Shown piece by piece: positions 11,084 to 55,878 of a stretch of DNA of 64,000 nt. The stretch spans positions 29,446 through 93,445 of the forward strand of contig CALFAY010000048.1 of NCBI GenBank assembly GCA_937944855.1, in the 5' to 3' direction. Every line of letters begins with the position of its first letter. Within the stretch, counting starts at the first letter, position 1. The stretch is from an uncultured Planctomycetota bacterium (GTDB taxonomy: Bacteria > Planctomycetota > Planctomycetia > Gemmatales > HRBIN36). The translations under genes were made by a program, and so were the position numbers. Under the pieces are notes generated by a model. The model worked only from the letters and a program-made list of their open reading frames with translations. It had not been told where the DNA came from and did no database searches.

Positions 11084-11131
11084 AATGCGGATAATCGGGT
11101 ACCCACTTCCGCCTAGCCACGCCGAAGCCGA

Positions 11132-13762: not shown

Positions 13763-13950
13763 GCCTTGTAGTGTAACCGAGACAAGCGGTTCTTGACACG
13801 CCATTTCCTCCGGACCGAGGCGTCGAGACGGACTATTCAGGCAGCAAGCCCCTACGATATGCTTAGAAGCCATGCCAGAGTCTCCAGCGACTTCCGCTGA
13901 TCGAGAGTCCGGACAAGGGCAACAATGAGCACACGGGAAATCGGGGTGAA

Positions 13951-22870: not shown

Positions 22871-22889
22871 CCTTCGCCTCTTGCCTGAA

Positions 22890-24956: not shown

Positions 24957-25086
24957 AGGACAGTCCCCCCGGGACCATGCGGCAGAACAACGCATATTTT
25001 ACCACGCCCGCTTCGCAAGTCCCAGAGTGTCATCGCACGGAACGGAGCTTCGCAACCTCGCCGGGCCTGTCTTTCTCAGGTACCGC

Positions 25087-25521
25087 TCAAGGATTCCATG
25101 CCTCGACGGGAGCATGGGGCAAAAGCCCGATGCCGGTCACCAACATCCCTGCCCATAACAGGGCGAACAGGATGCCAAGCGGAATGTGGATTCGCCGCCA
25201 ATGTTTTAAACCCGTCAAGAGCATGAGCGGCATGACGAACAGAAGGGGAATGACGAAACACAGATGGACGCGCAAGACTTGCCGGTGAAACACGGTCCAT
25301 CCGTTGGTCACCGACCAGCCCGGTTCGAGGTAGGGACCGATCCGGAGCAGTACCTCGAAAGCAAGGACGGCGGACATCGTCAGGACGAAGAAGAGCAGGT
25401 TGAGCCGACCGTGCAGCTTCACCCGGCCCCGCGCTAGAAAGATCAGCGATGCCACGAGGAGCACCGTCACCGCCGAAACAGTGATCTTCAGAACGAGGAT
25501 GATGTCGTAACCCGACGGCAT
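25087..25521 (-). CDS. Small 4-TM membrane protein (DUF420-like)
   Basis: 144-aa ORF with four hydrophobic helices. The size and His/Arg placement resemble the DUF420 family. This is a weak call. Confidence 0.5.
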   Translation of the reverse strand: MPSGYDIILVLKITVSAVTVLLVASLIFLARGRVKLHGRLNLLFFVLTMSAVLAFEVLLRIGPYLEPGWSVTNGWTVFHRQVLRVHLCFVIPLLFVMPLMLLTGLKHWRRIHIPLGILFALLWAGMLVTGIGLLPHAPVEAWNP

Positions 25522-25531
25522 CGGACCGACC

Positions 25532-26875
25532 TTACTTGGCCAAGAGGTTCAGGACCGCGGCAGACATGGCCTGCACCCCGGTTTTCAAGGTCGGTTCCAG
25601 GACCGGGTAGTAACCGTCCGAGTGCATCGAAGGCAGGGGCCGTCCGCCGTTGGCCGCTTCCTCCAGGCGCTTCGGCGATTCGGTGCCGAGGCGAAACATG
25701 CAGATTGGAACCCCGGCCAGACCGAAGCGGCTGAAGTCCTCGCCGCCCATGATCGGCGGTTTGGAAACGACGTTGTCTTCCCCCAAAGCTGCCCGGAGCG
25801 CCGCGGCGGTCTTGCGGGTCAACTGCACATCGTTGACCATCGCCGGAGTGAACTCGTCGGCATGAACAATGACCTCCGGCTCCGGAGCTCGGGCAGCCTG
25901 GGCCGCTGCCTTGGCGATCCGTTCAATCCCTTTGAGAAGGTGATGCCGCACCGAGGTCTTGAACGACCGCACCGTTAACTGCATCTTGACCTCGTTGGGA
26001 ATGATGTTGTGCTTCGTTCCACCGTGAATCGAACCGACCGTCACCACGGCCGAATCCAACGGATCGGTCTCCCGACTGACCAGCGTTTGCAGGTCGAGAA
26101 CGATGCGGGCGGCAATGACGATGGGATCAATGGTCGTGTGCGGAGCAGAACCGTGGCCCCCCTTCCCCTTGACGATGATGTCCACGCTATCCACGTTCGC
26201 CAGCGCCAGCCCTTCGGTGATGCCGACGGCGCCATGCGGCGTAAAGTTGTCACAATGCAAAGCCAGCGCGAAGTCCGGCTTGGGGAAGCGCGTGTAAAGC
26301 CCGTCTTCGAGCATGGCCTTGGCCCCTCCGCCGCGTTCCTCCGCCGGTTGGCCGATGAAAACCAGGGTCCCGCTCCAGCGGTCCTTCAATTCCGTCAAGA
26401 CCCGGGCCGTCCCTACCCAACAGGCCATGTGCATGTCGTGGCCGCAGGCGTGCATGACGCCGATCTCCCGGCCCTCCGCATCCTTGACTCGCACCTTGCT
26501 GGCGAAGGGCAGGCCGGTTCGCTCGATTACAGGAAGCGCGTCCATGTCGGCCCGCACCATGACCGTCGGCCCTGGGCCGTTCTTTAACACGCCGACCACG
26601 CCATACCCGCCGACGCGCTCCGTGACCGCGAACCCAAGTTTCCGCAGTTCTTGAGCAAGTCGTGCAGAGGTCTTCTCCTCCTGGTAGGAAAGCTCAGGGT
26701 TGGCGTGGAGGTGCTTGTAGAGTTGTTCCAGATCGTCGTAGTGTTTTTCCAAGATCCGCTGCACTTCGGGCAACAGTTCCGGCAACCGCACATGGGCCGA
26801 TTCTGCGGCTCGACCCGCTTGCCATGCGACCACCAACCCCGCTACCGTCAGGAGCCGAATCGCCCACTTGCACAT
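25532..26875 (-). CDS. M20D-family amidohydrolase (aminoacylase / hippurate hydrolase-like), secreted
   Basis: 'VMHACGHDMH', 'FIGQPAEE', 'ALHC' and 'GGHGSAPH' motifs. ATG 26875 (MCKWAIRLLTVAGLVVAWQAGRA, a signal peptide) is preferred to the track start 27127, which would overlap the divergent gene. Confidence 0.85.
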   Translation of the reverse strand: MCKWAIRLLTVAGLVVAWQAGRAAESAHVRLPELLPEVQRILEKHYDDLEQLYKHLHANPELSYQEEKTSARLAQELRKLGFAVTERVGGYGVVGVLKNGPGPTVMVRADMDALPVIERTGLPFASKVRVKDAEGREIGVMHACGHDMHMACWVGTARVLTELKDRWSGTLVFIGQPAEERGGGAKAMLEDGLYTRFPKPDFALALHCDNFTPHGAVGITEGLALANVDSVDIIVKGKGGHGSAPHTTIDPIVIAARIVLDLQTLVSRETDPLDSAVVTVGSIHGGTKHNIIPNEVKMQLTVRSFKTSVRHHLLKGIERIAKAAAQAARAPEPEVIVHADEFTPAMVNDVQLTRKTAAALRAALGEDNVVSKPPIMGGEDFSRFGLAGVPICMFRLGTESPKRLEEAANGGRPLPSMHSDGYYPVLEPTLKTGVQAMSAAVLNLLAK

Positions 26876-28622: not shown

Positions 28623-29063
28623 CTAATGACTCTGCGAGACCTCAGTGGCGCGGCCAGCAATGCGAAGCTGAATCCGAGCCTTGGCGGCCGCTTGCTGACG
28701 CGATTCCCGTTCTTTGGCTGTCGCTGCCGGTTGCCGAGCCGCTTCCAAGTCTGCCTCCGCCTTCGCCACGTCGATCTCCTCGGCCGGCACAGCCCGCGAC
28801 GTCAGCACCGTGACCACATTGCCGCGAATCTGGGCAAAACCTCCGTCCACGTAAAATCGCTGGGCATGGTCGCCGGTGGTCAACCGCAGCTCTCCCGTAC
28901 CGAGACGGCCGATCAGCGGAGCACGGCCCGGAAGCACGCCCAGTTCCCCGTCGAACATCGGCAGAGCGATAAAGTCGACCTTCTCATCCAGGAGGGTGCG
29001 TTCCGGAGTGACCACCACGCATTGCAGACTTGGACGGGATGTCTGAGTTTCCATCGGTTCCAC
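28623..29063 (-). CDS. atpC: F-type ATP synthase epsilon subunit
   Basis: 'LQCVVVTPERTLLDEKVDFIALPMFDGELGVLPGRAPLIGRLGTGELRL...FYVDGGFAQIRGNVVTVLTSRA' matches the epsilon beta-sandwich plus C-terminal helical hairpin. An RBS 'AGGTGGA' lies 5 nt before the ATG. Confidence 0.85.
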   Translation of the reverse strand: MEPMETQTSRPSLQCVVVTPERTLLDEKVDFIALPMFDGELGVLPGRAPLIGRLGTGELRLTTGDHAQRFYVDGGFAQIRGNVVTVLTSRAVPAEEIDVAKAEADLEAARQPAATAKERESRQQAAAKARIQLRIAGRATEVSQSH

Positions 29064-29174: not shown

Positions 29175-29909
29175 CTATCTATTTCGCTTCCGCCCGATGA
29201 AGCGATAATACGGCACCTGGAACCCGGGCAGGTACGGCATCCGTGCCCAGTGCTCCGAAAAGCTGACGGTCTCGAAGCGGCGCTCCAGATAGGGAACGTG
29301 GTCTGGTGAAGGATAAACGTTATCGACATTGAACCAGATGGGCCAGAAGGTCCGGGTGAACCAGGTATGTCGTCGGTGGGCTGCGACCGTGTGCTTCCGC
29401 GAGACGTAAAAATCAACCACGCCGATGTGACCGCCGGGGGAAAGCAGTTCCAAGGCGTGGTCTATGGCGGCGAACCAGTCGGGAATCATCGTCAAGGAAT
29501 AGGAAAACGTGATAACATCCGCCCGTCCTTCCGGCGGCACGAACGTGATGGCGTCCGCCAGGACAGGTTCGACGTTGCTCCAGCCCCGACGGGTCACGCG
29601 GTCACGGGCGACTTCCAGCAGGGAAGAGGCTAGGTCCACGACGTAGATCTTGCGTAAAGCGGCCAACCGATCGACGATGAATTCGAGGTTCTGTCCGGTG
29701 CCTCCGCCCATGTCGATCCACACCCCGCCTTCGGGAAGCGGCAGCTCCCGCAGCATCTCCTCTCGGCCACGCAACAACCGCTTGCGGAAATCATCGTAAT
29801 GGGCGGCCTGATGACGATAGAAGCTGTCGAGCCGCTCGGCATGGTTCCTGCCGCGAATCGGGCTGAGAGTCAGATGGTAGAGGACTTTGAGATCAGCCAG
29901 CAAAGACAT
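29175..29909 (-). CDS. btaB: SAM-dependent N-methyltransferase, BtaB-like (betaine lipid DGTS synthesis)
   Basis: 'LDSFYRHQAAHYDDFRKRLLRGR', the SAM motif 'IDMGGGTGQN', 'VITFSYSLTMIPDW' and 'VPYYRFIG' are as in BtaB. It lies directly downstream of a BtaA-like gene. Confidence 0.8.
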   Translation of the reverse strand: MSLLADLKVLYHLTLSPIRGRNHAERLDSFYRHQAAHYDDFRKRLLRGREEMLRELPLPEGGVWIDMGGGTGQNLEFIVDRLAALRKIYVVDLASSLLEVARDRVTRRGWSNVEPVLADAITFVPPEGRADVITFSYSLTMIPDWFAAIDHALELLSPGGHIGVVDFYVSRKHTVAAHRRHTWFTRTFWPIWFNVDNVYPSPDHVPYLERRFETVSFSEHWARMPYLPGFQVPYYRFIGRKRNR

Positions 29910-29953
29910 CCGGTGCCCTCACGACGCGGGTGGATCGAGTCCGGAAAACGTTG

Positions 29954-31153
29954 CTAGGCGAGAGCCAGGTCGGCGATGTAGAAGCTGCCGTAAGTGTGGA
30001 CTCGATCTTTGGCGTGCAACTCAGCCGCCAGATCCTGATGATACCGCAGAAGGTCGCCGACGCGGTAACAACGGCCCTGCACCTCGACCTTGAGGGGATC
30101 GACATACTCGACCTTCAGCCCTCCGCTGCGCCACAGGATGCGGGCATCGTGGGTGGCTCGATTGACAATAGCCTGCCATTCGCGCTCCAGTTCCCCGTGT
30201 CGGAATGTACTGAGCCAGTCCATGTGGTCCAGCAGCACGAAACGGGAGATCTTGCCGTCATGGTTGTCGAGGAACTGCTGCAACGATCCCGTGTGGACGC
30301 TGATGCGGTCGAGCAGGCCGTTGCGGAGACGATGAAAGTTGTCTTCCTTCAGATACTCCGGACAGCACGTCCGTGAGTATTCGCCAGTCAAATACACACG
30401 CCAAAAGTAATTGTCCCAGATGGGCAGACAGGCGAACACGGCCTCGACGCAGTCTTCGATGTACTTGGCGATGCCGCCCTGATAATAGCGTTCCACCTGC
30501 TGCCGCTGCGGTCGGGGCACACCGACGAAGGACAACGTCGTGTCCCTGCCGATCATCCAGCGGACGAATCGCTTCCAGACCGCGTCTCGAAGCTCGCCGA
30601 AGTAAATGCTCTGCTGTTCATCGAGCGAGGTGGCTGCCAACAGACGGCTGACGGCGTCCCGGACGCGGGCGATGCGGTCGATGTAGAAATTGGCCAGTCG
30701 GGCAAACGTCCCAGAACTGCCGTGAAAATAAAAGCTGTTCCTCCAGCCGCCCGGATCGAAGAAATTGATGTGCCTGTCCCAGTATTCTGCCGCTTGCGGG
30801 CTGAGACCGGGCCGCAGATACTCCCGATAGATGGTCCGGTAATTCCGCAGTCTGCCCCGGCCGAACATCTCGAAGAAGGTTTCAAAATCGAGATGCCGGA
30901 TGCCGACGATCTTCAGTTCGAGCAGGGCATTCTGCCGGGGATTCATGTCCACCGCGTAGATGTGCCGGGGTGCCAGCAAGGCGTAGTCCAGGACGTTGCA
31001 GCCGGCGGAAGTAAGGACGGCGATGGTGTCGTCCGGCCCCAAATCGAGGGCGACGCGATCCAGCCGCGGATCCTCCCAGCAGGTATTGTACACCAGGTTA
31101 TTTCCATGCACAAAGGAGAACCACCGACCGCTAAGCCAATCTCCGCGCAACAT
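29954..31153 (-). CDS. btaA: S-adenosylmethionine:diacylglycerol 3-amino-3-carboxypropyl transferase, BtaA-like (DUF3419)
   Basis: The 'VYNTCWEDPRLDRVAL...VLTSAGCNVLDY' N-terminal block is typical of BtaA/DUF3419. ATG 31153 has a 'GAGG' RBS 5 nt upstream. The alternative start is 31285 (the track start). Confidence 0.8.
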   Translation of the reverse strand: MLRGDWLSGRWFSFVHGNNLVYNTCWEDPRLDRVALDLGPDDTIAVLTSAGCNVLDYALLAPRHIYAVDMNPRQNALLELKIVGIRHLDFETFFEMFGRGRLRNYRTIYREYLRPGLSPQAAEYWDRHINFFDPGGWRNSFYFHGSSGTFARLANFYIDRIARVRDAVSRLLAATSLDEQQSIYFGELRDAVWKRFVRWMIGRDTTLSFVGVPRPQRQQVERYYQGGIAKYIEDCVEAVFACLPIWDNYFWRVYLTGEYSRTCCPEYLKEDNFHRLRNGLLDRISVHTGSLQQFLDNHDGKISRFVLLDHMDWLSTFRHGELEREWQAIVNRATHDARILWRSGGLKVEYVDPLKVEVQGRCYRVGDLLRYHQDLAAELHAKDRVHTYGSFYIADLALA

Positions 31154-31320
31154 AGAAACCTCGAACGCAGGGCGGCCATGCTTGCGTGAAAGCCGCCGAG
31201 GGAGTCGCCGATCCGCGATGAACCGGGGAATCGGAGGGATGGTCCCAAGCACGATCAGAATACGGATCTGACTTGCCAAGAGCAAACGAAATCATGGGGC
31301 AAAGCTGGGTGAGGGTCGAA

Positions 31321-32244
31321 TTAACGTCCTGCTCCCGGCAAGACCACCGTATGGTCCGTATCCGAATCGCTAAGAGTGCGGACCTGGACGCGGGAGAAAA
31401 TGTTCTGCAATTCCTTGAGATACAGGTTCAACAGGAGGCTCTCCGAGGAAGAATCGTGGGGATGATACTGCTCCAGCAGGGCGAAAAACGCCGCGGCCTC
31501 GGCCTCTGCCTTGCGAACCCGGTCTTTGGACGCCGCTCGAGCTTCACTGACAATTCTGCGGGCCTGCTGCTGAGCGGACGAGATTTCGATCTGGCTGGCC
31601 CCCAGGGCCTCGCGTTCCGTGATCTCTTTCTGAGTGCGCGCCCGATTGACCTGACGAAAGGCCTCGGCCAGTTCGGCCGGAGGCTGAACATAAGTAAGGT
31701 TCACGCTTTCGATGACGATGCCAAGCCGATACCGTCGGATTTCTGCGGACAGCAGCTGCTGAATCCGCGACTCCAGGCCGCCTGCCTGTCCCAAGAGCAC
31801 GGCATCGACCCGCTCCGAAGCCAACGCCCGGCTCAAGGCGGCCTCAGCAGCCCGTGGCAGAACCTCCGAGGCTTTATCGGCATTGAGCACGTAATCCGCG
31901 ACGGCTCCCGGAGTTTCACGGTCCACTCGGTAATAGACGCTGATCCGGACGTCGATCAGATTGTTGTCCCCCGTGAGGAGTTGACCGGCGGGAACGCTGT
32001 CCTCAGGAAGAGGCAAATCCGGCAGGAAACCCACTCCCAGCTGTCTTTGCGAATCGACGGCGATGCGGTCCACGCGGTCCAGGCCCCAGGGCAGACCGAC
32101 GTTGAGGCCGGGCAGTCGCGGCTGTTCGAGCACCCGACCGAAACGGCGGACCACTGCCAATTCACCCGGCTTGACCTGGTAAATACCCGTTGCCAGGTAG
32201 GACAAACCCACGATTAATAGAAGCAGATACAGCCAGCGTCTCAT
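31321..32244 (-). CDS. SPFH/band-7 protein, HflK-like
   Basis: N-terminal TM followed by '[42 protein letters not shown]', then a coiled-coil A/E/R-rich region. ATGA overlap with the upstream SPFH gene. Confidence 0.8.
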   Translation of the reverse strand: MRRWLYLLLLIVGLSYLATGIYQVKPGELAVVRRFGRVLEQPRLPGLNVGLPWGLDRVDRIAVDSQRQLGVGFLPDLPLPEDSVPAGQLLTGDNNLIDVRISVYYRVDRETPGAVADYVLNADKASEVLPRAAEAALSRALASERVDAVLLGQAGGLESRIQQLLSAEIRRYRLGIVIESVNLTYVQPPAELAEAFRQVNRARTQKEITEREALGASQIEISSAQQQARRIVSEARAASKDRVRKAEAEAAAFFALLEQYHPHDSSSESLLLNLYLKELQNIFSRVQVRTLSDSDTDHTVVLPGAGR

Positions 32245-33335
32245 CGGGAAGGCCCCCCAGGGTTGGCTGGCGAAACGGCCGATTCGTTGGACGCAGGGTT
32301 CGCCTTGTCCTCCGCCGATCGAGCAGTTCCGCGGAGTCCGGCTCCTGGAGAATTTCCTGGCTTGGGCAAGTCTTTCAATAAGGAAAGCAAAGGATGGTCC
32401 AGCGACAGAATGATCTGCGTCTTATCGTCGCCGAACATCTGGCGATAGCCTTCTAACATGCGAATGGTACGGTAGAAATCGGGGGCCTCCTTGTGGGCGT
32501 CGTTGAGGATTCGCGCTGCGTCGGCCCGAGCCTGGCCTTCGAGGCGGATGCGTTCGGCCTCGGCTTCCGTCCGGATTCTTCGAGCGGCAAGTTCCCCTTC
32601 GGCACGGATCCGAGCCGCTTCGACTTCCCCCTGCAATCGGTAATTGTTCGCTTCCCGTTTGCGGTCCTCCCGGATTTTGGCGAAAATCTCGTCCCGCACT
32701 TGGACCGGATGGTTGAACCGCCGCAGACGGATGTCCACCAGATCAATACCGACCTGCTGCGTTCTGTCGGCCAGGCTGATCGGCTTTTCCTCCGGACCGG
32801 TTCCCCGGAGATAGGGTCGGTTGCGCACTTGGTCGAGCAGTTCCCCGATGCGTAACTGCTGCACCTCGGTATTGACCAATTGGTTTAACAGCAGACTGCT
32901 AAGCTCGACTTTGAGGCGGCTGATGATCTGGCTGCGAAGGAAGTCCTGGGCGCGCTCCAGAGTACCGAAGTTCCGGACGAAGAGATCGACAGTATCCCGC
33001 TCGGCTGTCGGTTCAGCGATCCGCCAGCAAACGTAGACGTCGAAGGTGAGCGGCAGCGGCTTCTCGGTGCCGGACTGTTCGTCCCGGTCGCGAATGAGCA
33101 TTTCCTGCGTGGGCACGTCGAAGAACTGAAGCCGACGATCCAGGCGAAGCACATCCTGGATCGGCCAGGGTGCTTTCCAGTGCCAACCGGCTTCGCTGGC
33201 GCCGTCGTAGGTAGCGACCTGGGCGCCGAACTGCGTCACATAGACGAACTCGGCCTGGTCCACGAAGACCACGGCACTGTAGGCCGTCCAGGCCAGTGCG
33301 CCTGCCAAAACGATATGCCAAATGCGCGGTCTCAT
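32241..33335 (-). CDS. SPFH/band-7 protein, HflC-like
   Basis: N-terminal TM, 'VFVDQAEFVYVTQFGAQV' and 'GIDLVDIRLRRFNHP', then a long 'EAEAERIRLEGQARADAARI' coiled-coil region. Confidence 0.8.
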   Translation of the reverse strand: MRPRIWHIVLAGALAWTAYSAVVFVDQAEFVYVTQFGAQVATYDGASEAGWHWKAPWPIQDVLRLDRRLQFFDVPTQEMLIRDRDEQSGTEKPLPLTFDVYVCWRIAEPTAERDTVDLFVRNFGTLERAQDFLRSQIISRLKVELSSLLLNQLVNTEVQQLRIGELLDQVRNRPYLRGTGPEEKPISLADRTQQVGIDLVDIRLRRFNHPVQVRDEIFAKIREDRKREANNYRLQGEVEAARIRAEGELAARRIRTEAEAERIRLEGQARADAARILNDAHKEAPDFYRTIRMLEGYRQMFGDDKTQIILSLDHPLLSLLKDLPKPGNSPGAGLRGTARSAEDKANPASNESAVSPANPGGPSR

Positions 33336-33401
33336 GGCGTCACCTTGATTGTTTTCTCATCGCCCGCTACCGCTTCTTCGCCCGCAGCGAGGCACCAAAA
33401 C

Positions 33402-36400
33402 TTACGGCCCTTCCGTATCTCGCTGAGGTTCCCGTCGGGTGCGCGGCTCAGCGTCCCGGCCCCCGATCGGAAGACGCAGGCGGAGACCTTCAGGGAGGAC
33501 ATGAAGTTGCCCTTTCCATCGGTCGTCCCGGATGACTTTGGGTCGGCCTTTAAGCGTTTCCTCTGCCGCTTCAAGGTGCAGCCGGAAGGTTGTCAACTGA
33601 TTGCGTACCTCCGGGTCCTCCCGCAGCAGGTCGAATGCGATCATCTGAGCGTTCAGTTGCGCCGGGGTCAGCCCAGGAGCGATGGGGAAGCAGAATCCGG
33701 AAATCCAGCCGACCCGTTGAGAGGCGAGCAGGCTGAGAAAGGCGGTTCGATCCGCCTCGGTCTGGGTCACGACGGCATGCCTCTGCGCCTCGGCTGCGGA
33801 ACGGACGCGGTACTCAGCGGCCTTTTCCCGTGCGATGCTTGTCTCACTGTCGCTTTTGGCCTCGACGAGCATCTGCTCGCGCTGGCTCAAGGCCCGGGTG
33901 ACGGCGTAATAGGCATCGACGACCTGAGCCGGGGGATGGAGGTCTTGAACTTCCACGGAGTCGATGGCGATGCCTAGATCCTGGTTGCCGCGCAGCAATT
34001 GCCGCAACTGCCCGGCGACTTGCTGTTGCACCTGCTCCCGTCCGCCCGCGAGCAAATCGGCAAAGGCCCGCTCAGCAATTGCCTCACGCAAGAGAGCCTC
34101 GGTCATGGCCCGCACAACGCCTTCAGCATCGTTGACGGTGAACAGGTACTTGCGGGGATCTTCGGGTCGGTAGAACACACGAGCCTTGACTTCGATCAGG
34201 TTGCCGTCTCCGGTAATCATCAGAGCCTCTTCTTCGAGGCGAAGGATTCCCTGAGCATGCACTGCGGACCAGGTGAGTTCCCCCGCCAGAGGCCCAAACG
34301 CCCGGAAGCCGATGTCAAGAGAACGCAGACGCCGCGGTTCGATCTTCGTCACCTTCTCCAACGGCCAGGGCAAACGAAAATGCAATCCTGGCTCCAGGTC
34401 CTCGGGCAGAACCCTTCCGAAACGCCGGACGATTCCGATCTGATCCGGGCCGATCACCACGATCCCGCTGGCGACATAAAGCAGCACAATCAGACCAGCC
34501 GTTCCTCCCAGGACCGCTTTCCAGTGGTCTAGGAAGAAGTGACTCACCTCGTGGAAACTGAGCCGCTCAAGCCAGGTGTCGAACCGGGACACATAGGTCC
34601 GCCAGCGTCGCACGGCAGCCGAGTCCCGGGTGCGTTCAAAGGCCAACAGCCGCATGGCATTCAGAAGCACAGCCAAGGATGCCGCCTGGTGGTAGATCGC
34701 GGCCCAGATCGGTGAAGCGTGGCGGGCCTGCTCCGACCATCCTGGAACGATCCAAGCCGTCAAGACCACACCGACGATGTTGACCACGAAGGCGAACCAG
34801 ACGATATTCTGCTGGATGACGGCGACGGTCTGCCGAGCAAGTCGGACCAGGAAAGGCAACGACGCCAGGGGTTGTCGCAGCAAGACGATGTCCCCTGCTT
34901 CGGCGGTCACGTCGATCCCGCCCAGAGCGAGACCGACATATCCCGTCGCCAAGGCCGGCGCGTCGTTGATGCCATCGCCCACCATGGCCGGGCGACGCCC
35001 CTGCCTGCGTTGATTCTCCAGCCAGGCCGCCTTATCGGTGGGCAGAAGCTCGGCATGAAATTCGGTGATTTCCAGTTCCCGAGCGACTGCTTCAGCAACA
35101 GCCTGGCGGTCGCCGGTAAGCAAGGCGATGTCGTGGATGCCCATGCGGCGCAATTCTTGAAGCACCTCGGCCGCTTCGGGCCGAACCGTGTCCCGTACTC
35201 CCAGCACTCCGACAACCTGACCGCCCTGGGCCACGAGCAAAGCCGTTTCCCCTGCGGCGTCCAACTGGCTCAGGATCGTCTCCAGCTCCCCGGGAAGCGA
35301 CAGATGGTGCCGCTCCATCAAACGGCGATTGCCCACGATCACTTGTTGGCCCTGGACCGTGGCCGAGACTCCCCCTCCGGGATGCGATTCGAAGTGCTCC
35401 ACCTCAGGCAAGGTCAGTCCCCGGTTTCGGGCTTCCTGAACGATGGTCTGGGCGATGACGTGTTCGCTCCGCTGTTCTGCTGCCGCGGCCAGGCGCAGCA
35501 GCTCCTGGGGACTCACTTCAGGTGCCAGGACGACGATGTTTCCCAGGCGAAGCTGCCCGGTGGTCAAGGTGCCGGTCTTGTCGAAAGCAAACAGGTTGAC
35601 CTCGGCCAGTCGCTCCAGGGCCGAGCCGCCTTTGATGAGGATGCCACTGCCGGCCAACCGGCCCAAGGCAGCGATGATGGCGGCGGGAGTGGCGAGGATC
35701 AGAGCGCAAGGACAGGCGACCACGAGCACGGCCAAGGTCGGAAAAACCGCCTTGTACCAGCCGCCATCTTCCTGGCGAAACCACCAGAGATTGGCCAGGA
35801 AAGTGATCAGGGCCAGACTGAGGACGACAGGTAAGAACCAGCGGGCAAGGCGGTCGGCCGTCCGCTCCAGAGGAGCTTTGTCCCGCAGGGCGCGGGCGGT
35901 AATCGCCAGCACCCGGCCCATGACGGTATGCTCGGCGATCCGCTTGACTTCGATGATCAGCGCGCCGTGTTGATTGAGCGTTCCAGCCAAAACCTCAGAA
36001 CCCGGCCCCTTCTCGACGGGCAGACTCTCGCCGGTCAGGACGCTCTCATCGACCGCGGAAGCGCCCTCGACGACGACGCCGTCCACGGGAATCCGTTTGC
36101 CGGGCCGGACGAGGATGCGATCTCCAGCTTTCAACTCCGCCACGGAGGTTTTGACCGGCTCGCCATCGCGTATCAGCCAGCACAGCTGCGGAGTCAGTTC
36201 GACCAGCCGGGTGATGGCCCGTTTGGTCCGGTCGAAGGTGAAGGCTTCCAGGCACTCGCCGATCAGTCCGATGAGGATGACTTCGGCAGCGACCAGCGGT
36301 TGGTTGATGAGAATGGCAGCAACGGCGGCGATAGCCAGGGCCAGATCGGCCCCGATCCGCCCTGCGCTCAGACTCTCCAGAGCGCCGTACAAGGCCCGAG

Positions 36401-36632
36401 CGGAGCCGAGAATCGCAGCGATCAGCGCGAACCGCCAATGAGTGCCGAACAGCGTCAAGCCGCTGTCCAAGATCGGAAGCTCGACGCCCAGCCACGGTGC
36501 CAGCCAAAGGGCCAGCGGATCCCAGGCCAGATCAAGGAAAAGAAGTGAGCCGACTAGGAGCGTAAGGAGATAAAGGCCCGCCTGACTGGCGCGTCCGAGG
36601 ATCGGATCGACGTGGGAAATCTCCCGGTGCAT
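33402..36632 (-). CDS. P1B-type (CPC) heavy-metal-type P-type ATPase fused C-terminally to an HflK-like SPFH/band-7 domain
   Basis: ATPase motifs TGES ('LTGESLP'), '[11 protein letters not shown]', 'DKTGTLT' and '[10 protein letters not shown]'. After two more TMs and a linker TM, an SPFH domain follows: '[40 protein letters not shown]...[19 protein letters not shown]...[12 protein letters not shown]'. Confidence 0.85.
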
Positions 36633-36744
36633 GCCGCGTAGCCCTGTCAGGCATGAGAGAGGTCGCGCTGCGGGTGGAACAGTCTCAGGCTACGCCAAGC
36701 ATGCTGCTCCGTCAAGAAAAGCGGCTGTCGGGAGGTAGGCGGGA

Positions 36745-36888
36745 TCACCGCCAGGGGCGAATCTTCGGCTGCACGGCGTGGCAACGGCGGCAGCGGACCT
36801 TCTTGCGGTTGATCGGCTTGCCGCACTTGGGGCAGCGCTTCTGCTTCAGGAGCTTGACATACTTGGTACGAGGACGAACCTGGCCCAT
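36745..36888 (-). CDS. Unannotated 47-aa highly basic zinc-ribbon protein (CxxC...CxxC)
   Basis: My own translation gives MGQVRPRTKYVKLLKQKRCPKCGKPINRKKVRCRRCHAVQPKIRPWR*. A 'GGAGGG' RBS lies 7 nt upstream of the ATG. It is too short for the ORF track. It is co-directional with the ATPase gene and 113 nt upstream of it. Confidence 0.55.
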   Translation of the reverse strand: MGQVRPRTKYVKLLKQKRCPKCGKPINRKKVRCRRCHAVQPKIRPWR

Positions 36889-37635
36889 AGGCGGTCCCTC
36901 CGCACATTATGTCGAATCGCAGCCGAGCAGTTTGTTTATCGCCACTGCCGCTGCCGGACAAGGCCCTCAGCCGGTGAATCGGTCTTGTCTATCAGAAGTA
37001 GAAAACCCTCTGGCTTCGTTCCCGATTTTGGTTGCAAGGTGCAGAGCCGGAAAGTAACTAGGAATTGGTTCACTCCAGAAAATAGTTGCATTCATTAAAA
37101 ATTGCCGTGGAACTTTCAAAAGTTCTTCAAAGACGAAATGAGAGAAAGATCCTAGGCTGAAAGATCGTCAGGATCGTTACAACCGAAATCTGTGGCGAAC
37201 CTATGTGGTTCTGTAAGGCCGCAATTTTTTTGACGCGGCATGACACCGGCCTAGGTCTCGAGGATACGTCGCAAGCGTAACGGCGATCCTGGAAATCCAG
37301 GCTTCGATCCTGACGACCGCAAGTACGGCGACGGCCTGAGAAGGATGCTTGGGCAAACGGGGAACTTTCCGATGAGCGGAAAGGCGACACGGAAGTTGGC
37401 AAGGGAATCACCCACGGACCGGTGCTTGCCGGCGTTCTTGGATTGGGGTCTGTCGTAACCCACGGGGACGGAGTCTGCGCCGAGATCGGCAAAGAGCGAA
37501 GCAGGTCTCAGATGCTACGCGAAGACCGTGCCGCGAGGAGAAAGTGAAGGCAGGACGCCTTCGGAAGCTGGACTTGTACGTCTGCCCGACGGATGCGGGT
37601 ATGACGGGGACGCCCGGGAGCCGCGAGGCGGATCG

Positions 37636-39183
37636 ATGCCTGTGACGGAAGTCTGGGCTTTTTGTCTGGCCTTGCTGGCTGCTCTCGCCACGGTGCCGAT
37701 GGCGAGGTGGACATCCCGTCGCTGGGGGCTGGTCGATCACCCCGACGGCCATCGAAAGATGCATCGCCAACCCATCCCCCTTGCAGGTGGCATTGGCATT
37801 CTCACAGCCCTCGTACTGGCAGTCCCGGCCCTGGTCATATTGCGGCATGTTTCCTTCGTCGATGCCGTTGCAGCCACGAATCCAAGTGTCGCACTGGGCA
37901 CGCTGGCGGCAGTCGTTCTTCTGATGGCGATAGGGATTGCCGACGATTTCCGGCTGCTTCGGGGAAGACACAAGCTGCTGGGTCAGATCTTCGCTGTCGG
38001 CATTTTGCTGCTGTGTGGTTGCGTGGTGCGACGGATCAGCCTTCTCGGGTTCGAGTTCGACCTCGCGTTTTTGTCATACCCGTTCACCGCTTTCTGGCTG
38101 CTTGGTGCGATCAATGCCTTTAACCTGCTTGACGGCATGGACGGATTGCTGGGCACAATCTCAGGTTTGGCTTCGATGGCGGTAGCAGTCGTTGGCGTCC
38201 TCGCGGGGGATGTCCTTTTGGCCATCGCAGGTGCCCTGCTGGCCGGGGCGATTGCTGGCTTTCTCAAATACAACCTGCCGCCTGCCAGCGTATTCCTCGG
38301 AGACTCGGGCAGCATGGTGCTCGGGCTCGTGGTCGGCTTGCTCATCCTGCGGGCTTTCACGGTCGAATCGGCTTCGTTCTCCTTATTGCCGGCCCTGGGG
38401 TTGGTCTGCATTCCGGTCGCCGATACCGCCGCAGCGATCCTACGCCGGACGCTGACCGGCCGAAGTCTGTATGCGACGGATCGAGGCCACATCCACCACG
38501 TACTCCTGCGCCGGGGCAGCAACACCTGGCAGGTATTGGCCATCCTCGGCGGACTTTCGTTGGTGGCTGTACTCGGCTCGATCCTCAGCGTGGTCCTGGG
38601 GGCTGACTACCCCGCCGCCTGTGCTGCGATCGCTGTGGCAACGGTGTTGTTGGCCGGGGGGTTATTTGGCCGATCTGAATTGAAACTGCTTGGCAATCGC
38701 TTGCGGCACGGCTTGGCTTCTTTCCTCCGCGGCCCGGGCCAGGATGCCGCCCGCGAATTGCAGGTTCACATGCACGGCACCGCGGCTTGGCATCAGTTGT
38801 GGCGGGAACTCACCGAGTTCGCTGCCCAGTCGAATCTCCAGAGCATCCGTCTGGATGTCAGCCTGCCAGCCCTGCATGAGGAATATCATGCCCGGTGGGA
38901 CCGGCCCCATGCCACGGATGAGGTGCGGGACTTGTGGGCCACCACCGTCCCGTTGATGGCCGGGGGCCAACTCATCGGCCGCCTGGAGATTCGCGGCCGA
39001 CGGGATGATGTGCCCGTGTGTGATAAGATTCTGCAAGTCGCACGCTTCGTCGAAAATCTGGAGCGTACTGCCGCAGCTGCTCTTCCCGCTTCGTCTCCGA
39101 CGCTGCTTTCCCTTCCGGACTCTCGTCCAAGCGGTAACGGAGACAGGGACAGACAAGGTCAGGTTTTCGCAGTTTCAGACTAG
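37636..39183 (+). CDS. WecA/MraY-family polyprenyl-phosphate hexose(N-acetylhexosamine)-1-phosphate transferase with a ~170-aa C-terminal extension
   Basis: 'DHPDGHRKMHRQPIPLAGGI', 'NAFNLLDGMDGL' and 'VFLGDSGSMVLG' are signatures of this family. ATG 37636 has a GAGG RBS. The track start 37528 is unlikely. Confidence 0.85.
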   Translation: MPVTEVWAFCLALLAALATVPMARWTSRRWGLVDHPDGHRKMHRQPIPLAGGIGILTALVLAVPALVILRHVSFVDAVAATNPSVALGTLAAVVLLMAIGIADDFRLLRGRHKLLGQIFAVGILLLCGCVVRRISLLGFEFDLAFLSYPFTAFWLLGAINAFNLLDGMDGLLGTISGLASMAVAVVGVLAGDVLLAIAGALLAGAIAGFLKYNLPPASVFLGDSGSMVLGLVVGLLILRAFTVESASFSLLPALGLVCIPVADTAAAILRRTLTGRSLYATDRGHIHHVLLRRGSNTWQVLAILGGLSLVAVLGSILSVVLGADYPAACAAIAVATVLLAGGLFGRSELKLLGNRLRHGLASFLRGPGQDAARELQVHMHGTAAWHQLWRELTEFAAQSNLQSIRLDVSLPALHEEYHARWDRPHATDEVRDLWATTVPLMAGGQLIGRLEIRGRRDDVPVCDKILQVARFVENLERTAAAALPASSPTLLSLPDSRPSGNGDRDRQGQVFAVSD

Positions 39184-39209
39184 TTGGCCAATCGGCTTGG
39201 GAGTTCGCG

Positions 39210-41597
39210 ATGTCGTCTCCGGATCACTCGGATTTCATGCCGATCGAAGAAGATTCCGGCCCTTCGCAATTGCAGCAGCTTTTGGGGCTGGCCTGGCGAC
39301 GCAAGGGATTGATCACGTTTGGTTTGGCAGTCGGACTGGTCATTGGCGCGATCTATTACGCCCAGTGCTCGCCGGTGTATCAATCGCAGGCTCAGTTGTT
39401 GGTGGTCAAAAAGCGGCCTGACGCCCTGCCCGTCACTGGCCTGGACACCCGCTACTCGACGCTGAGCTTCACGGAAGATTACCTGGCGACCCACATTGTC
39501 CTGATGCGCAGCCCGTTGATCGTCGGTCGCGCTGTACAACGGCGGAATCTGGCCAATCTGCCGTCATTCCGGGGACAAAGCGACCCGGCAGCAGTCATTC
39601 CCCAAGCCCTCAAGGTGACGCGCGACACGAAGGAGTCCGGCGTCAGTGCCAGCAACATCCTTTACCTGTCCTACGAGGGACCAGTTCCCGAAGATTGTGC
39701 GGCCGTCATCAACGCGATCGTGGCCAGTTACCGCGAATTCCTGGACGAAGCCTACCGCTCCATGAGCAACGAAACCGTGGAACTGATCACTCAGGCGAAG
39801 AATTACCTCCAAAAGGACCTCAAGGACAAGGAAGAGGCCTATCACCAATTCCGCGAGAAAGCTCCGGTGCTGCTGAAGGGGAAAGGCGGCTTCGGTCTGG
39901 GGCAGGAGCGGATTGCCTCGCTGGAAAACCGTCAGGTGGCCATCCTGATCCGCAAGGCAGAACTGGCAGCGAAATTAAATGCCCTCGACGACGCCGTGAA
40001 AAACGGGAAGAGTCCGACTGCTGTGCGAGCCTTGGTCGCCGACCTGATGCGGCGTGGTCCCAGCGACGGCACGTCGTCCGGCTTTGTTTCCCCAGGACGA
40101 AATACATCTCGGGCCGTGGAGGAGCAACTGCTTCCGCTGCTGCTTCAGGAACAGGCCCTTCTGGAGAATTACGGTCCCGATCATCCGCAGGTGATCTCCC
40201 TGCGTCAGCGGATCACTTTTACGAGAAAATTCCTCAACGATCTGACTGATGTCTCCAGCGATCCTGAGTCTCCGGAAGCAGCGGAGGAAAGAGCACGGCT
40301 TCGCGATCCGGTTCATCGTTTCCGCTTGCTTCTGGTTCAGGAGCTTCAGGAACTCCAGGCCGAGGAAGAACAGATCGCCGCGGCGTTGAAGGCCGAACAA
40401 GAACAGGCTAAGGCCCTGCTTAAGCTAGATCTCGAGGAAGAGTCGCTACGCAATGACGTGGTGCGGACGCAGCAGTTGTATGAGAACGTCATCAAGCGGC
40501 TTCAGGAAATCGACCTGGGCAAGGAAGGCGGTGGCTTCGAGGCCCGGTTGATTTCCCCGCCGAATCCCGGCATTAAGGTCGCTCCCCGGGCCATTCCCAT
40601 TTTCGCGGGAGCCATGCTCGTCGGCCTCGTCGTCGGAGCGGGGCTGGCGTACCTTGCCGAGTTCCTGGACAAGAGTTTCCGGTCGCCGGAGGAGATCCGT
40701 CGCCGCCTGCGTCTGCCGCTGATCGGCCATATACCGGTGCTCCCGCATGCGGACCGCCCAAGTGCCCTTGGCAGCCGACTGGATGGCAGTTTGGTGGCCT
40801 TTCATCGTCCACGGTCCCTGGAAGCCGAGGCCTATCGCAGCGTGAGGACGGCCCTGTATTTCAGTACCCAGGGCGAACGGCACAAGGTCATCCAAATCAC
40901 CAGCGCCAGCAAAGGCGAGGGCAAATCGACCTTGGCGGCCAATCTCGCCATTTCCATCGCCCAGTCGGGCCGCCGGGTGGTGCTGGTAGATGCCGACCTG
41001 CGGCGGCCCCGGATTCACATTCTTTTCGGACTGGAAAACCAACGAGGACTCTCCGACATCGTCCGCGGCGAGGCCGAGTGGAAGGAACTGGTCCAATCGA
41101 CGGCCTGCCCGAATTGTCTCGCGATCACTTCCGGCCCGATTCCTGCCAATCCCGCAGAGCTTCTGACCATGCCGCGTTTCCAGGAACTGGTCAATGCTTT
41201 GCGCGACGAGTTCGATTTCGTCCTGGTGGACAGTCCCCCCTTGTTGGCCGTCACCGATCCGTGCGTTGTCGCTCCCCGAGTGGATGGAGTGATTCTCGTC
41301 CTGCGATTGTCCAAGCAATGTCGGCCCTTGGCGGAGCGATCCCGGGAGATCCTCCTGTCCCTGGGAGCCCATGTTCTCGGCGTCATCGTCAACGGCCTGG
41401 GCCGCAAGGGCAGCTCCGCCTACGGGTATGTTCAGGACTCCTACGTCTACAGGTCGGACTACATGCCGCCGCAGCCGGAAGAAGAGGACATCTACGAGTA
41501 TTTCCAGGCGGATGACTCGGCGAACAGCAATGGCAAAGCTTCCAGCGCGGCGAAAACCGAGAAGGACGGTAACCCCGCCCCGGTCACTCGTTCCTAG
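39210..41597 (+). CDS. Wzc/GumC-type polysaccharide co-polymerase fused to a BY tyrosine autokinase
   Basis: Wzz-like N-terminus with TM, a long coiled-coil periplasmic region and a second TM. Kinase Walker A is 'SASKGEGKST', A' is 'VVLVDADLRRP', and B is 'DFVLVDSPPLL'. The C-terminal tail is Tyr-rich: 'SSAYGYVQDSYVYRSDYMPP...IYEYF'. Confidence 0.9.
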   Translation: MSSPDHSDFMPIEEDSGPSQLQQLLGLAWRRKGLITFGLAVGLVIGAIYYAQCSPVYQSQAQLLVVKKRPDALPVTGLDTRYSTLSFTEDYLATHIVLMRSPLIVGRAVQRRNLANLPSFRGQSDPAAVIPQALKVTRDTKESGVSASNILYLSYEGPVPEDCAAVINAIVASYREFLDEAYRSMSNETVELITQAKNYLQKDLKDKEEAYHQFREKAPVLLKGKGGFGLGQERIASLENRQVAILIRKAELAAKLNALDDAVKNGKSPTAVRALVADLMRRGPSDGTSSGFVSPGRNTSRAVEEQLLPLLLQEQALLENYGPDHPQVISLRQRITFTRKFLNDLTDVSSDPESPEAAEERARLRDPVHRFRLLLVQELQELQAEEEQIAAALKAEQEQAKALLKLDLEEESLRNDVVRTQQLYENVIKRLQEIDLGKEGGGFEARLISPPNPGIKVAPRAIPIFAGAMLVGLVVGAGLAYLAEFLDKSFRSPEEIRRRLRLPLIGHIPVLPHADRPSALGSRLDGSLVAFHRPRSLEAEAYRSVRTALYFSTQGERHKVIQITSASKGEGKSTLAANLAISIAQSGRRVVLVDADLRRPRIHILFGLENQRGLSDIVRGEAEWKELVQSTACPNCLAITSGPIPANPAELLTMPRFQELVNALRDEFDFVLVDSPPLLAVTDPCVVAPRVDGVILVLRLSKQCRPLAERSREILLSLGAHVLGVIVNGLGRKGSSAYGYVQDSYVYRSDYMPPQPEEEDIYEYFQADDSANSNGKASSAAKTEKDGNPAPVTRS

Positions 41598-41640
41598 AGC
41601 CGCTCTGCGTAGTCTTTGAGCCGGTGGGCAAGGAGAAGGC

Positions 41641-42432
41641 GTGATTCCCCTGGTGGACGTACATTGTCACCTGCTTGCTGGTCTGGACGACGGACCCGCT
41701 ACGCGCCAAGCCGCCCTGGAGATGTGTCGCATGGCTTACGCCGAGGGCGTCCGCTGGATCGCGGCCACGGCACATCAGAACGACCACTACCCCGACAATT
41801 CGCCGGAGCGGATTCGTTCAGCCAGCCGGATGCTTGCCGATGATCTGCGGCGGGAAGGATTGGCACTGACCGTCGTGCCCTCCGCAGAAATCGTGGTGAG
41901 GACGGATATCTGCGAAGCCTGGCAACGCCGAGAATTGCTCTCAGTTACCGACCGTGATCGTTATCTGCTCGTGGAATTGCCGCACGGTTTGTTCGTCGAG
42001 ATCGGCTTTCTCGTGCGGCAACTTCGGCATGTTGGCGTACAAGTCATCCTCGCTCACCCAGAGCGACACGAAACTCTTTTGCACACTCCCGGGTTGATCG
42101 AGGACCTGATCGCCGAAGGGTGTCTGGTGCAGGCGTCGTCGGACAGTATCACGCGTCCGCGCTCCAAGGCCGATCAGCGTGCGTTGAAGCACTGGGCCAG
42201 ACGCGGCATCATCCATCTGCTCGGCTCAGACGGCCACAACGCAACGACCCGACCGCCGCGCATGGCTGCTGCCTATGAGCAACTGGCGACCTGGGCAGGA
42301 ATGGCCTACGCCGATCGCGTGTGCAGCAGCCACAGTCTGGCCGTGCTTCAAGGAGTCCCCGTGCGAGTCAAGCCGCCCGCTAACAACCGTTCCTGGTTCG
42401 CGTGGTGGCAAACGGCATGGTCGCGGCGATGA
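41641..42432 (+). CDS. PHP-family protein-tyrosine phosphatase (CpsB/YwqE-like)
   Basis: GTG start with an 'AAGGAGAAGG' RBS. 'IPLVDVHCHLLAGLDDGP', 'TAHQN', 'ILAHPER' and 'LGSDGHN' are metal-ligand motifs of CpsB-type phosphatases. Confidence 0.85.
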   Translation: MIPLVDVHCHLLAGLDDGPATRQAALEMCRMAYAEGVRWIAATAHQNDHYPDNSPERIRSASRMLADDLRREGLALTVVPSAEIVVRTDICEAWQRRELLSVTDRDRYLLVELPHGLFVEIGFLVRQLRHVGVQVILAHPERHETLLHTPGLIEDLIAEGCLVQASSDSITRPRSKADQRALKHWARRGIIHLLGSDGHNATTRPPRMAAAYEQLATWAGMAYADRVCSSHSLAVLQGVPVRVKPPANNRSWFAWWQTAWSRR

Positions 42433-42440
42433 CTGGCCGA

Positions 42441-43763
42441 CTATGGCAGCGTCCCCGTTACCGTGCCCTGACCGTCCTCGGCATTGATAAACCGCCCAAA
42501 CAGGCTGAAGCGGAACTGGAAGCTCAGGTAACGAAGCAGAGCTTCGGTCGGCTTCTCTTGCAGGATCAGGAAATCGCCCGGCTGCACGAGAATCCGTTCG
42601 CGAGGATCGTTGAGCGCTCGGTTGAGATCGACGCGGATAGGAATCTGCTGGCCAGTGGGCAGACGGCGAATGACCGTCAACTGGCTCGGCGACGGAAAAC
42701 CCAGGCCCGACAAAAGCAGACTTCCTGTTAGGTTATTCCCTTGGATGCCGCCGCTCACTAACGGGCCGCCTACCCGAACGACGGCTTCGACAACATCGAG
42801 GTCGTAATCGCGCGGCAGGATGTGTTCTCCCGGCGGAAGCAGACCGCCGGTGTAAAACACCTCGGTATCCCGGGCACGGATGAAGACGATGTCGCCGGTG
42901 CGCAGGACGATGTCCTCAGGAGTGAAAGGCGGCTCAACGCCGGGGGGCAGCCTCAGAGGAATTCGGATGGTATGGATGCCTGGCAGGTCGAGGATCGGCT
43001 TGCGACCCGCGTCCGCCCACAGGGACATCTCCTGCTTCAACCGCTGGGAGTCGCCCTCGGCTTTGAAGTACCCGCGTTGGATGAAGATCTCGTTTTCGGC
43101 GTCGAGTCCCGGAAGGCCGCCAGTCTGGGCCAGGGCATTCAAGACGTCATTCTCGTAGGCTGGGAGATCCACGACGCTGCCGGTTCCTCGCTTGGTGTTG
43201 CCGATCAATCCCGCCTGATTGACCAGCAGCCCACCGGAATCTTCGCGAATGACCAAGACGCTGTACGTCCTTGGCCGAAGCAACGTGACGATGATGCGTT
43301 CCCGTTCCGGACGCAGAATCTGCTTCTTGACTGTGTAGGCGTGCCTGATGGCGTTTTCAGCTTCGATCAAGGTCATGCCTTGGACTTTGATCGGGTCGAC
43401 CAGGGGAACCGAAATGGTGCCGTCCTCGCGGACGGGAACCGGATAACCGATGGCTGGCGGTAAACGGCCTCGTTCGGTCAAGCTTACTGGCGGAGTCTGG
43501 TTCTGTTCTCCCAGGACGCCTTCGATCCAGACGCCCAACACGTCGCCGGGTTCGAGAATGTATTTTTCGGGCGGCTTTTGACGAAGCAGACTCAGGGGTA
43601 CAGGTTGATCGGTTTCGCGAGGACGGGCCAGAAACTGAGGCGGAAGCCGCCGCACCGGTACACCGTTGGCCACCGGATTGCTCACGGCCGCGCAGCCGCT
43701 CGACAGCAAAGCGACAACCAAGAGCACAAGCAGCGACGCAAAGTGCCCTCGAATGTCACTCAT
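42441..43763 (-). CDS. Wza-like outer-membrane polysaccharide export lipoprotein (Poly_export + SLBB domains)
   Basis: Lipobox 'LLSSGCAAV' after ATG 43763. 'YILEPGDVLGVWIEGVL' is Poly_export-like. There are repeated SLBB-like units ('LRTGDIVFI', 'VQPGDFLIL'). Confidence 0.8.
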   Translation of the reverse strand: MSDIRGHFASLLVLLVVALLSSGCAAVSNPVANGVPVRRLPPQFLARPRETDQPVPLSLLRQKPPEKYILEPGDVLGVWIEGVLGEQNQTPPVSLTERGRLPPAIGYPVPVREDGTISVPLVDPIKVQGMTLIEAENAIRHAYTVKKQILRPERERIIVTLLRPRTYSVLVIREDSGGLLVNQAGLIGNTKRGTGSVVDLPAYENDVLNALAQTGGLPGLDAENEIFIQRGYFKAEGDSQRLKQEMSLWADAGRKPILDLPGIHTIRIPLRLPPGVEPPFTPEDIVLRTGDIVFIRARDTEVFYTGGLLPPGEHILPRDYDLDVVEAVVRVGGPLVSGGIQGNNLTGSLLLSGLGFPSPSQLTVIRRLPTGQQIPIRVDLNRALNDPRERILVQPGDFLILQEKPTEALLRYLSFQFRFSLFGRFINAEDGQGTVTGTLP

Positions 43764-43797
43764 TCTCGTGAGCCGCTCCGGGTCGTGCATGCGTTGG

Positions 43798-52568: not shown

Positions 52569-52569
52569 T

Positions 52570-53721: not shown

Positions 53722-53742
53722 ACTTTCGCGAACACACAGACC

Positions 53743-54687: not shown

Positions 54688-54836
54688 GGGTAAATGATCT
54701 TGCGAGTATGCGTTGGTTGCTAATGCTGCCCCCGCATGCGTATCTGACCAGGAAACGCACTGACAGTTCATGACACCAATCTTAATGCATGTGGAGCAAA
54801 AGCATCTTCTTGTGTGTTATTAATACAACCCGATTT

Positions 54837-55856: not shown

Positions 55857-55878
55857 GGCGTCAGGTGACGTTGCCCTG

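Follow-up and report, generated by a model that had tools for sequence, protein, structure and literature searches.

A P1B-type metal ATPase fused to an HflK-type SPFH subunit and encoded with HflC- and HflK-type partners: a candidate scaffolded efflux module in Gemmatales

Gene content of the locus and the fused protein

The Planctomycetota contig CALFAY010000048.1 was analysed over a window of 64,000 nucleotides (nt), the window being the whole stretch of DNA considered here. The locus under study spans positions 31321-36888 on the minus strand, where four open reading frames (ORFs) run in the same direction. One of them encodes a P1B-type metal ATPase fused to an HflK-type SPFH domain, and it is followed by an HflC-type gene and by a second, free HflK-type gene. 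Below, F denotes the fused SPFH domain, C the HflC-type subunit and K the free HflK-type subunit (aa, amino acids; TM, transmembrane; AF2, AlphaFold 2).

33402..36632, minus strand: gene 1, the fusion of a P1B-type ATPase with an HflK-type SPFH domain, 1076 aa
34629..36632, minus strand: P1B-type heavy-metal ATPase part of the fusion, aa 1-668, from Pfam, TIGR01525, PDB matches to CopA, sCoaT and ZntA, and motifs
34509..34628, minus strand: cytoplasmic linker, aa ~669-708, from M6 to the extra TM helix, from the family consensus and AF2 secondary structure
34452..34508, minus strand: ninth TM helix, aa 709-727, counterpart of the N-terminal TM helix of HflK, from hydropathy, AF2 and M6 homology
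33402..34451, minus strand: HflK-type SPFH module of the fusion (F-type), aa 728-1076 and the stop codon, from Band_7, the hflK model, Foldseek and the tree
32241..33335, minus strand: gene 2, HflC-type SPFH subunit (C), 364 aa, one N-terminal TM helix, from Band_7, the hflC model and E. coli HflC
31321..32244, minus strand: gene 3, free HflK-type SPFH subunit (K), 307 aa, one N-terminal TM helix, from Band_7, the hflK model and E. coli HflK
36745..36888, minus strand: zinc-ribbon ORF, 47 aa, basic, from the ORF and a GGAGG read in the sequence

Read directly from the sequence, 66 nt separate the stop codon of the fusion from the start of the C gene, and the start of the free K gene overlaps the C stop codon as ATGA (32241-32244). 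The initial annotation of this DNA, which had proposed a possible three-component SPFH cage around a pump, gave the same coordinates for the four ORFs. Its ORFs, the peptides that it quoted, the gap and the overlap were all recovered, and the co-orientation and tight coupling that it described for the SPFH genes hold.

The first part of the fusion belongs to the P1B-type heavy-metal ATPases (TIGR01525, 572 bits against a cut-off of 346), with Pfam matches to E1-E2_ATPase (1.3e-54) and HAD hydrolase (2.1e-32), and its closest solved structures in a PDB search are CopA, HMA4, sCoaT and ZntA. The translation contains the catalytic motifs TGES, DKTGT and GDGINDAP as well as CPC in M4 (ACPCAL), so that the pump looks like an active metal-export ATPase of the P1B type. 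An N-terminal HMA domain is lacking. The M5 sequence is FAFVVN, in place of the YN of Cu+ pumps, and M6 reads YHQAASL (family consensus HQxGS), which aligns to HEGST of the P1B-4 pump sCoaT (7qbz) and places a His at the position of Met717 in LpCopA. Three subtypes were compared with this signature. The P1B-1 (Cu+) subtype, defined by YN in M5 and MxxSS in M6, was rejected on the replacement of the M5 Tyr by Val and on the M6 His at LpCopA Met717, and the P1B-4 (Co/Zn/Ni) subtype, defined by SPC in M4 and HEGS/T in M6, on the CPC of M4 and an HQAAS in M6 that resembles HEGS/T only in part. For the P1B-2 (Zn/Cd/Pb) subtype we take the defining set, from ZntA, to be CPC with a Lys in M5 and an Asp in M6; CPC is present, but M5 has no Lys and M6 no Asp, and this subtype was rejected too. 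Judged from their sequence, the ion-site residues match no standard P1B subtype. The atypical combination of CPC, VN and HQxxS with the lack of an HMA domain is a conserved feature of the fusion family and could define a P1B subgroup not yet characterised. The harder ligand set, together with the other exporters that share the module (see below), suggests that the transported metal is probably a divalent transition metal such as Zn, Co or Cd.

The pump is joined to the SPFH part by a His/Trp-rich linker of ~40 residues with the family consensus DRW.ER.L...E..HW..HHW. An AF2 model of the last 426 residues of the fusion, computed as a monomer, predicts two short helices in this linker (22-40 and 43-52 of the model), and the His/Trp motif may form an amphipathic helix or serve as a site for metal sensing in the cytoplasm. 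A ninth hydrophobic helix follows at 709-727 by hydropathy (AF2 helix 54-71). Since P1B pumps end in the cytoplasm after M6 and one further TM helix follows here, the SPFH module of the fusion is predicted to face the periplasm, with the topology of HflK. The Band_7 match of the fusion covers residues 726-927 (3.4e-23), and in the model the TM helix is succeeded by an SPFH fold, a 76-residue helix (252-327) and further C-terminal helices. The top Foldseek matches of the model are E. coli HflK chains (9cz2_XA, 3e-19; 7vhq_E, 1.6e-18), and other fold matches include QmcA (8z5g) and stomatin (9zd2, 9oh9). The fused module thereby has the architecture of HflK, which is also its best structural match: a single TM helix with its N-terminus inside, a predicted periplasmic SPFH domain, a long coiled coil and an HflK-like C-terminal segment.

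All three proteins belong to the SPFH/Band 7 family (PF01145, cut-off 23.6 bits), the fusion with 83.0 bits, gene 2 with 56.8 bits (3.8e-15) and gene 3 with 77.3 bits (2e-21), and hydropathy shows one TM helix, at the N-terminus, in the products of genes 2 and 3. Their assignment to the K or C type was examined with the NCBIfam models and with the E. coli PDB chains, with the following scores:

Fused module: NCBIfam hflK 136.5 bits, hflC 35 bits; E. coli PDB chains HflK 66, HflC 32
Gene 2: NCBIfam hflC 104.9 bits, hflK 26 bits; E. coli PDB chains HflC 84.6, HflK 20.9
Gene 3: NCBIfam hflK 132.6 bits, hflC 25 bits; E. coli PDB chains HflK 74, HflC 21

These two independent tests agree and confirm the two K-type units and one C-type unit of the initial annotation. 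The scores are nonetheless below the NCBI equivalog cut-offs, which are 159.4 for hflK (TIGR01933; fused module 136.5, free K 132.6) and 134.4 for hflC (TIGR01932; gene 2 104.9, though clearly of the C type). For this reason the three SPFH proteins are classified, from their sequences, as divergent members of the HflK/HflC type and not as canonical orthologues.

Conservation of the triad and its recurrence with other exporters

In a scan of one genome per species, relatives of the junction and SPFH region were encoded by at least 515 stretches, and the best 80 were studied. Nearly all of these 80 come from Gemmatales/Gemmataceae (Planctomycetota), including the isolate Gemmata sp. IIL30, and the closest relative is 79-82% identical. 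A word-indexed protein search returned fragments only, and the full-length members came from this genome scan and from an exhaustive search of cluster representatives. About 60 Gemmatales loci contain a single intact fusion ORF of 1080-1170 aa with the same junction, and 35 full-length cluster representatives carry the ATPase fusion. These counts bear directly on whether the long ORF could be an artefact, with two genes joined by a frameshift, a misassembly or read-through. Some relatives are indeed split into 2-4 ORFs (L001, L002, L010, L059), but these bear contig names in the style of ENA ERZ or uncultured metagenome-assembled genomes and are presumably indel-prone long-read assemblies. Against them stand the independent assemblies with one intact ORF, the full-length representatives and the conservation of the linker itself. 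We consider that an artefact has next to no probability and that it is effectively refuted by these sequence comparisons.

The genes after the fusion were counted in the 54 loci with at least 2.3 kb of downstream sequence, with profile hidden Markov models used in a second pass. C and then K follow F, with order and strand conserved, in 36 of the 54, and a further five have the fusion and C without a free K, so that C follows the fusion in 41 loci overall. The remaining 13 have no other SPFH gene within 10 kb of the fusion. Orthologous fusions that never lie beside HflK/C-like genes, the pattern that the initial annotation had named as fatal to its proposal, are therefore not what is found across these genomes (C in 41/54, C and K in 36/54). 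The median predicted gaps are 22 nt between F and C and 2 nt between C and K, with a 4-nt overlap, as in the window, at 10 of 35 C-K junctions. A neighbour-joining tree places the F domains (n=83), the free K domains (n=40) and the C domains (n=53) in three separate monophyletic groups, which are therefore regarded as three old paralogues retained together. The F-alone loci belong essentially to one Gemmata / Frigoriglobus / Urbifossiella-like clade, whereas F-C-K loci are found on either side of the F tree, from which the F-C-K arrangement is probably ancestral. Because lineages with F and C only and with F alone exist, the third component, free K, is dispensable in some genomes.

The exhaustive search with the part from the ninth TM helix through the SPFH module, over 1.84 billion cluster representatives, gave 6722 matches at E<=1e-3 and 159 at E<=1e-30. 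N-terminal partners were typed in the best 150 representatives of the F-type domain:

ATPase-fused F: 75 of 150, 35 of them full length
CDF-exporter-fused F: 23 of 150, complete proteins of 557-664 aa
SO_0444/ArsP_1-type permease-fused F: 1 of 150
F without a recognisable partner: 51 of 150, many of them fragments

The gene order extends to these other exporters. A CDF-fused F is followed by C and K with 4-nt overlaps in loci L087/L088 and L089, and by C in L092, where the pair adjoins a DtxR-family repressor and FeoB. In L083 an SO_0444-family Cu/Zn efflux transporter (NF033936, 369 bits, above the cut-off) is fused to F and followed by C and then by a K-type gene, the C gene being a bona fide HflC (195 bits, above the cut-off). 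Similarly, L093 has an ArsP_1 (SO_0444-like) permease fused to F, then a C-type and a K-type gene. Across the non-Gemmatales contexts with downstream sequence the next gene is of the C type in 8 of 8, and the third gene, where visible, is of the K type in 4 of 5. The fused domains of the non-ATPase exporters cluster with the F lineage and not with free K. The co-occurrence of the fusion with HflC/HflK-like genes thus reaches beyond the ATPases, since the same triad follows CDF and SO_0444 exporters. On this comparison of sequences, three unrelated families of cytoplasm-to-periplasm metal exporters share one scaffold module, and because the F-C-K layout also follows CDF and SO_0444 exporters, the module goes with metal efflux generally. 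As judged by gene annotation, the non-ATPase triads lie in metal-homeostasis neighbourhoods.

These data can be set against the view that the genes are adjacent by descent only. Genes 2 and 3 would then be an ordinary HflC/HflK pair, and the fusion, derived from the duplication of a neighbouring hflK, would work alone, either in homo-oligomers, as stomatin and QmcA do, or simply as a pump that carries an extension into the periplasm. The 13 loci with a fusion and no SPFH neighbour agree with this view, as does the existence of homo-oligomeric SPFH rings, with QmcA and stomatin among the fold matches of the fused module. However, the F-alone loci are essentially one derived clade, with F-C-K on both sides of the F tree, distant lineages preserve the F-C(-K) order with CDF and SO_0444 exporters, and the gene junctions are tightly coupled. 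The gene order is also informative in itself: in E. coli, hflK is followed by hflC at a distance of 2 nt, and F-C mirrors that order, so the pump-bearing F occupies the place of hflK and the free K, not F, is the added gene. Taken together, we find descent without joint function quite improbable.

Several further observations were made on the fused domains and on the loci of the non-ATPase exporters. An F-specific insertion in the SPFH domain (~34230-34300, minus strand; fusion aa ~778-801) has the pattern EIGFR...W.S.H...MITGD, with W788 and H792 invariant. It is common to the ATPase- and CDF-fused domains and missing in free K, in C and in the L083 SO_0444 fusion, and AF2 confidence is low at this insertion. 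A conserved gene of ~185-196 aa precedes the CDF-SPFH triads and is absent from the ATPase loci; its product begins with a TM or signal sequence and contains a weak MORN-like repeat, and the gene often overlaps the start of the fusion (L087 4440-4997, L088 372-929, L084 5361-5951, L089 1-351, and L091 2-490 by position only). The SO_0444 triad of L083 is followed at 9903-13893 by ZrgA, ABC, FtsX and DUF3299 genes, a set that we take to resemble the Zur-regulated zinc importer ZrgABCDE of Vibrio. In L092 the DtxR-family repressor and FeoB occupy 6773-9120, after the CDF-fused F and C.

A proposed SPFH-built efflux platform

We propose, with a probability of roughly 0.6, that the three genes form a self-contained module whose products assemble into a heteromeric ring of the HflK/C kind, exposed to the periplasm and carrying tethered pumps. 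If the E. coli assembly is taken as the model, the K positions would be divided between F and K and the C positions occupied by C, all within a single ring or dome that covers the cytoplasmic membrane on its periplasmic side. Each F would hold one pump at the fenced membrane patch through its cytoplasmic leash of ~40 residues, which would make the assembly an SPFH-built metal-efflux platform. The free K would dilute the pump-bearing subunits, and in lineages with F and C only every K position would carry a pump. The likely role of such a platform would be to stabilise, cluster and locally organise exporters. That the subunits assemble together, how they alternate and in what ratio, where the pump sits with respect to the ring and what the cell gains from it are all inferred.

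The best sequence and structure matches of the module proteins are E. coli HflK and HflC, whose assemblies of 24 alternating subunits fence off a patch of membrane beneath a dome in the periplasm (PMC12048511). The two systems have in common the N-terminal TM helix, the periplasmic SPFH domain, the long coiled coil, the C-terminal segment and the adjacent genes with K before C. Unlike the E. coli proteins, the K-type F bears a whole metal pump on its cytoplasmic N-terminus, and the module has a second, pump-less K after C, scores below the equivalog cut-offs and has no evident link to FtsH. That transporters can be held by SPFH assemblies is shown by the stomatin dome of erythrocytes, an SPFH oligomer over a membrane patch with the specific transport proteins AQP1 and UT-B enclosed in it (PMC12407830). 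Unlike the proposed platform, this dome is eukaryotic, homo-oligomeric and cytoplasm-facing, and its clients are recruited non-covalently.

The closest functional analogue is found in the PacL-CtpC/CtpG/CtpV effluxosomes of M. tuberculosis, whose P1B exporters are encoded beside dedicated single-TM scaffolds that stabilise the pumps and cluster them in membrane domains (PMC13460109). These pumps need their scaffolds, and clustering itself is required for activity and metal tolerance (PMC13460109). In contrast to the module described here, PacL is a DUF1490 protein whose cytoplasmic EA-repeat region binds the metal-binding domain of the pump non-covalently, whereas the scaffold of the module is of the SPFH/HflK-C type, faces the periplasm by prediction and is covalently fused to a pump that has no N-terminal metal-binding domain. 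In Pfam scans the neighbouring genes matched Band_7 only, with no DUF1490 scaffold among them. SPFH-NfeD pairs such as QmcA-YbbJ are likewise tight operons, in which the gene of a bacterial SPFH ring protein is coupled to that of a dedicated partner in the membrane; here the partner is instead an exporter, fused rather than separate, and no NfeD gene was matched in the locus or found as a conserved neighbour in the 80 related loci. P1B ATPases with unusual C-terminal domains exist, such as P1B-5 pumps with a hemerythrin-like domain. They share with the fusion an extra functional domain at the C-terminus of the pump, but theirs is small, soluble and cytoplasmic, while the extension described here is predicted to cross the membrane and to be an oligomerising scaffold subunit.

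The database names of the relatives are generic ("Cu+-exporting ATPase", "HAD-IC family P-type ATPase"), and a full-text literature search, which did not cover all journals, returned no description of an exporter-HflK fusion or an F-C-K triad. The components, a P1B pump and HflK/C-type SPFH subunits, are already known; what is new is the covalent exporter-scaffold architecture, the set of two K and one C, and its recurrence across exporter families. The structures of SPFH cages (HflK/C, prohibitin, stomatin, flotillin, erlin) have been solved recently, and their effect on the membrane proteins that they enclose is still debated. Here a client would be naturally welded to a cage subunit, with three unrelated metal exporters, and would offer a defined, stoichiometric client-cage system for which one tag suffices in purification and metal tolerance serves as a simple assay. 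Scaffolded exporter platforms, as shown for mycobacterial P1B pumps, may then be a wider principle that is reached here with a different scaffold.

Some of the evidence weighs against a platform of this kind. In the 13 loci without SPFH neighbours and the five without free K, these partners are either not obligatory or sited elsewhere, and the three SPFH proteins fall below the HflK and HflC equivalog cut-offs. The AF2 model is of moderate confidence (pLDDT, the predicted local distance difference test, 73.5) and, as a monomer, is silent on the oligomer. A search of sequencing runs matched the locus in metagenome DNA runs only and in no RNA run.

The retention of the full HflK architecture in the fused module, including the coiled coil and the C-terminal segment, also suits a different role, in which the triad is a true FtsH regulator. 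The pump, fused to HflK, would be an obligate client, and FtsH proteolysis in the cage or at its mouth would set pump abundance in place of scaffolding. FtsH is the only biochemically established partner of HflK/C, and its hexamers, as clients, touch the HflK SPFH domains inside the chamber (PMC12048511). On the other hand, no ftsH gene lies near the locus in the window or is a conserved neighbour in the 80 related loci, the proteins diverge from canonical HflK and HflC, and a module common to three exporters suits a role in metal efflux better than the turnover of one substrate. FtsH-linked turnover is for us a plausible but unlikely explanation. The tethered-pump platform can also be carried further, to a closed dome over the exporters from which metal would be released into a bounded periplasmic nano-compartment for sequestration or hand-off, with free K setting the number of pumps and with a general "caged efflux" of P-type, CDF and SO_0444 exporters in several phyla. 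We regard this extension as speculative and its probability as low.

Genes flanking the module

All-against-all clustering of the flanking ORFs in the 80 loci returned alternative-frame ORFs and scattered WD40 proteins only, and no regulator, chaperone, FtsH or NfeD gene was among the conserved neighbours. As far as gene content can indicate, the module is the three SPFH-bearing genes and nothing else.

The initial annotation had counted the zinc-ribbon ORF as a member of the array and had suggested that the transcription unit might reach the BtaA/BtaB and atpC genes, and neither suggestion is supported by the related loci. The zinc-ribbon ORF lies 112 nt upstream of the fusion, has a CxxC-x10-CxxC pattern and a good Shine-Dalgarno-like GGAGG 7 nt upstream, and gives only sub-threshold Pfam zinc-ribbon matches. 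No credible CxxC...CxxC zinc-ribbon ORF was found upstream of 69 related fusions, and a tblastn search with it gave chance-level matches, the one at E=4e-4 in L072 being repeat-like sequence with no clean ORF. It was rejected as a module member for want of an upstream counterpart in the 69 loci. It may encode a real small zinc-ribbon protein that has no connection with the pump. The BtaA-like (DUF3419), BtaB-like and atpC genes have matches in 0 of the 80 related loci; they were rejected as a longer conserved unit, and a functional extension of the module towards them is unlikely.

On the downstream side, the start of the BtaA-like gene is probably ~165 nt beyond the K stop codon. Window positions 29175-31285 (minus strand) hold this DUF3419 gene (2.4e-119) and the BtaB-like S-adenosylmethionine-dependent methyltransferase gene, a pair that, by its sequence, would make betaine lipid (DGTS) in a Gemmatales-like genome. 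A DUF3419 gene also occurs near the CDF-SPFH fusion of L084 (2536-3618), probably by coincidence. An ATP synthase epsilon gene (atpC, 28623-29063, minus strand) directly follows the methyltransferase gene, has no atpD upstream and appears to be an orphan.

A scan for promoters and terminators gave no signal delimiting the unit beyond shuffled expectation. On the upstream side, the border of the module in the window consists of a 640-nt spacer and a divergently transcribed polysaccharide-export cluster. This cluster (37528-43898) comprises a GT4 (WecA/MraY-like) gene with a long C-terminal extension, a Wzz/tyrosine-kinase-like gene, a CpsB phosphatase and a Poly_export protein. Elsewhere in the window, AT skew is strongly positive (0.16-0.22) at 22001-26000, and GC content falls to 0.52-0.55 at 52001-56000, against ~0.61 in the rest; each of these may be a recently acquired or unusual region.

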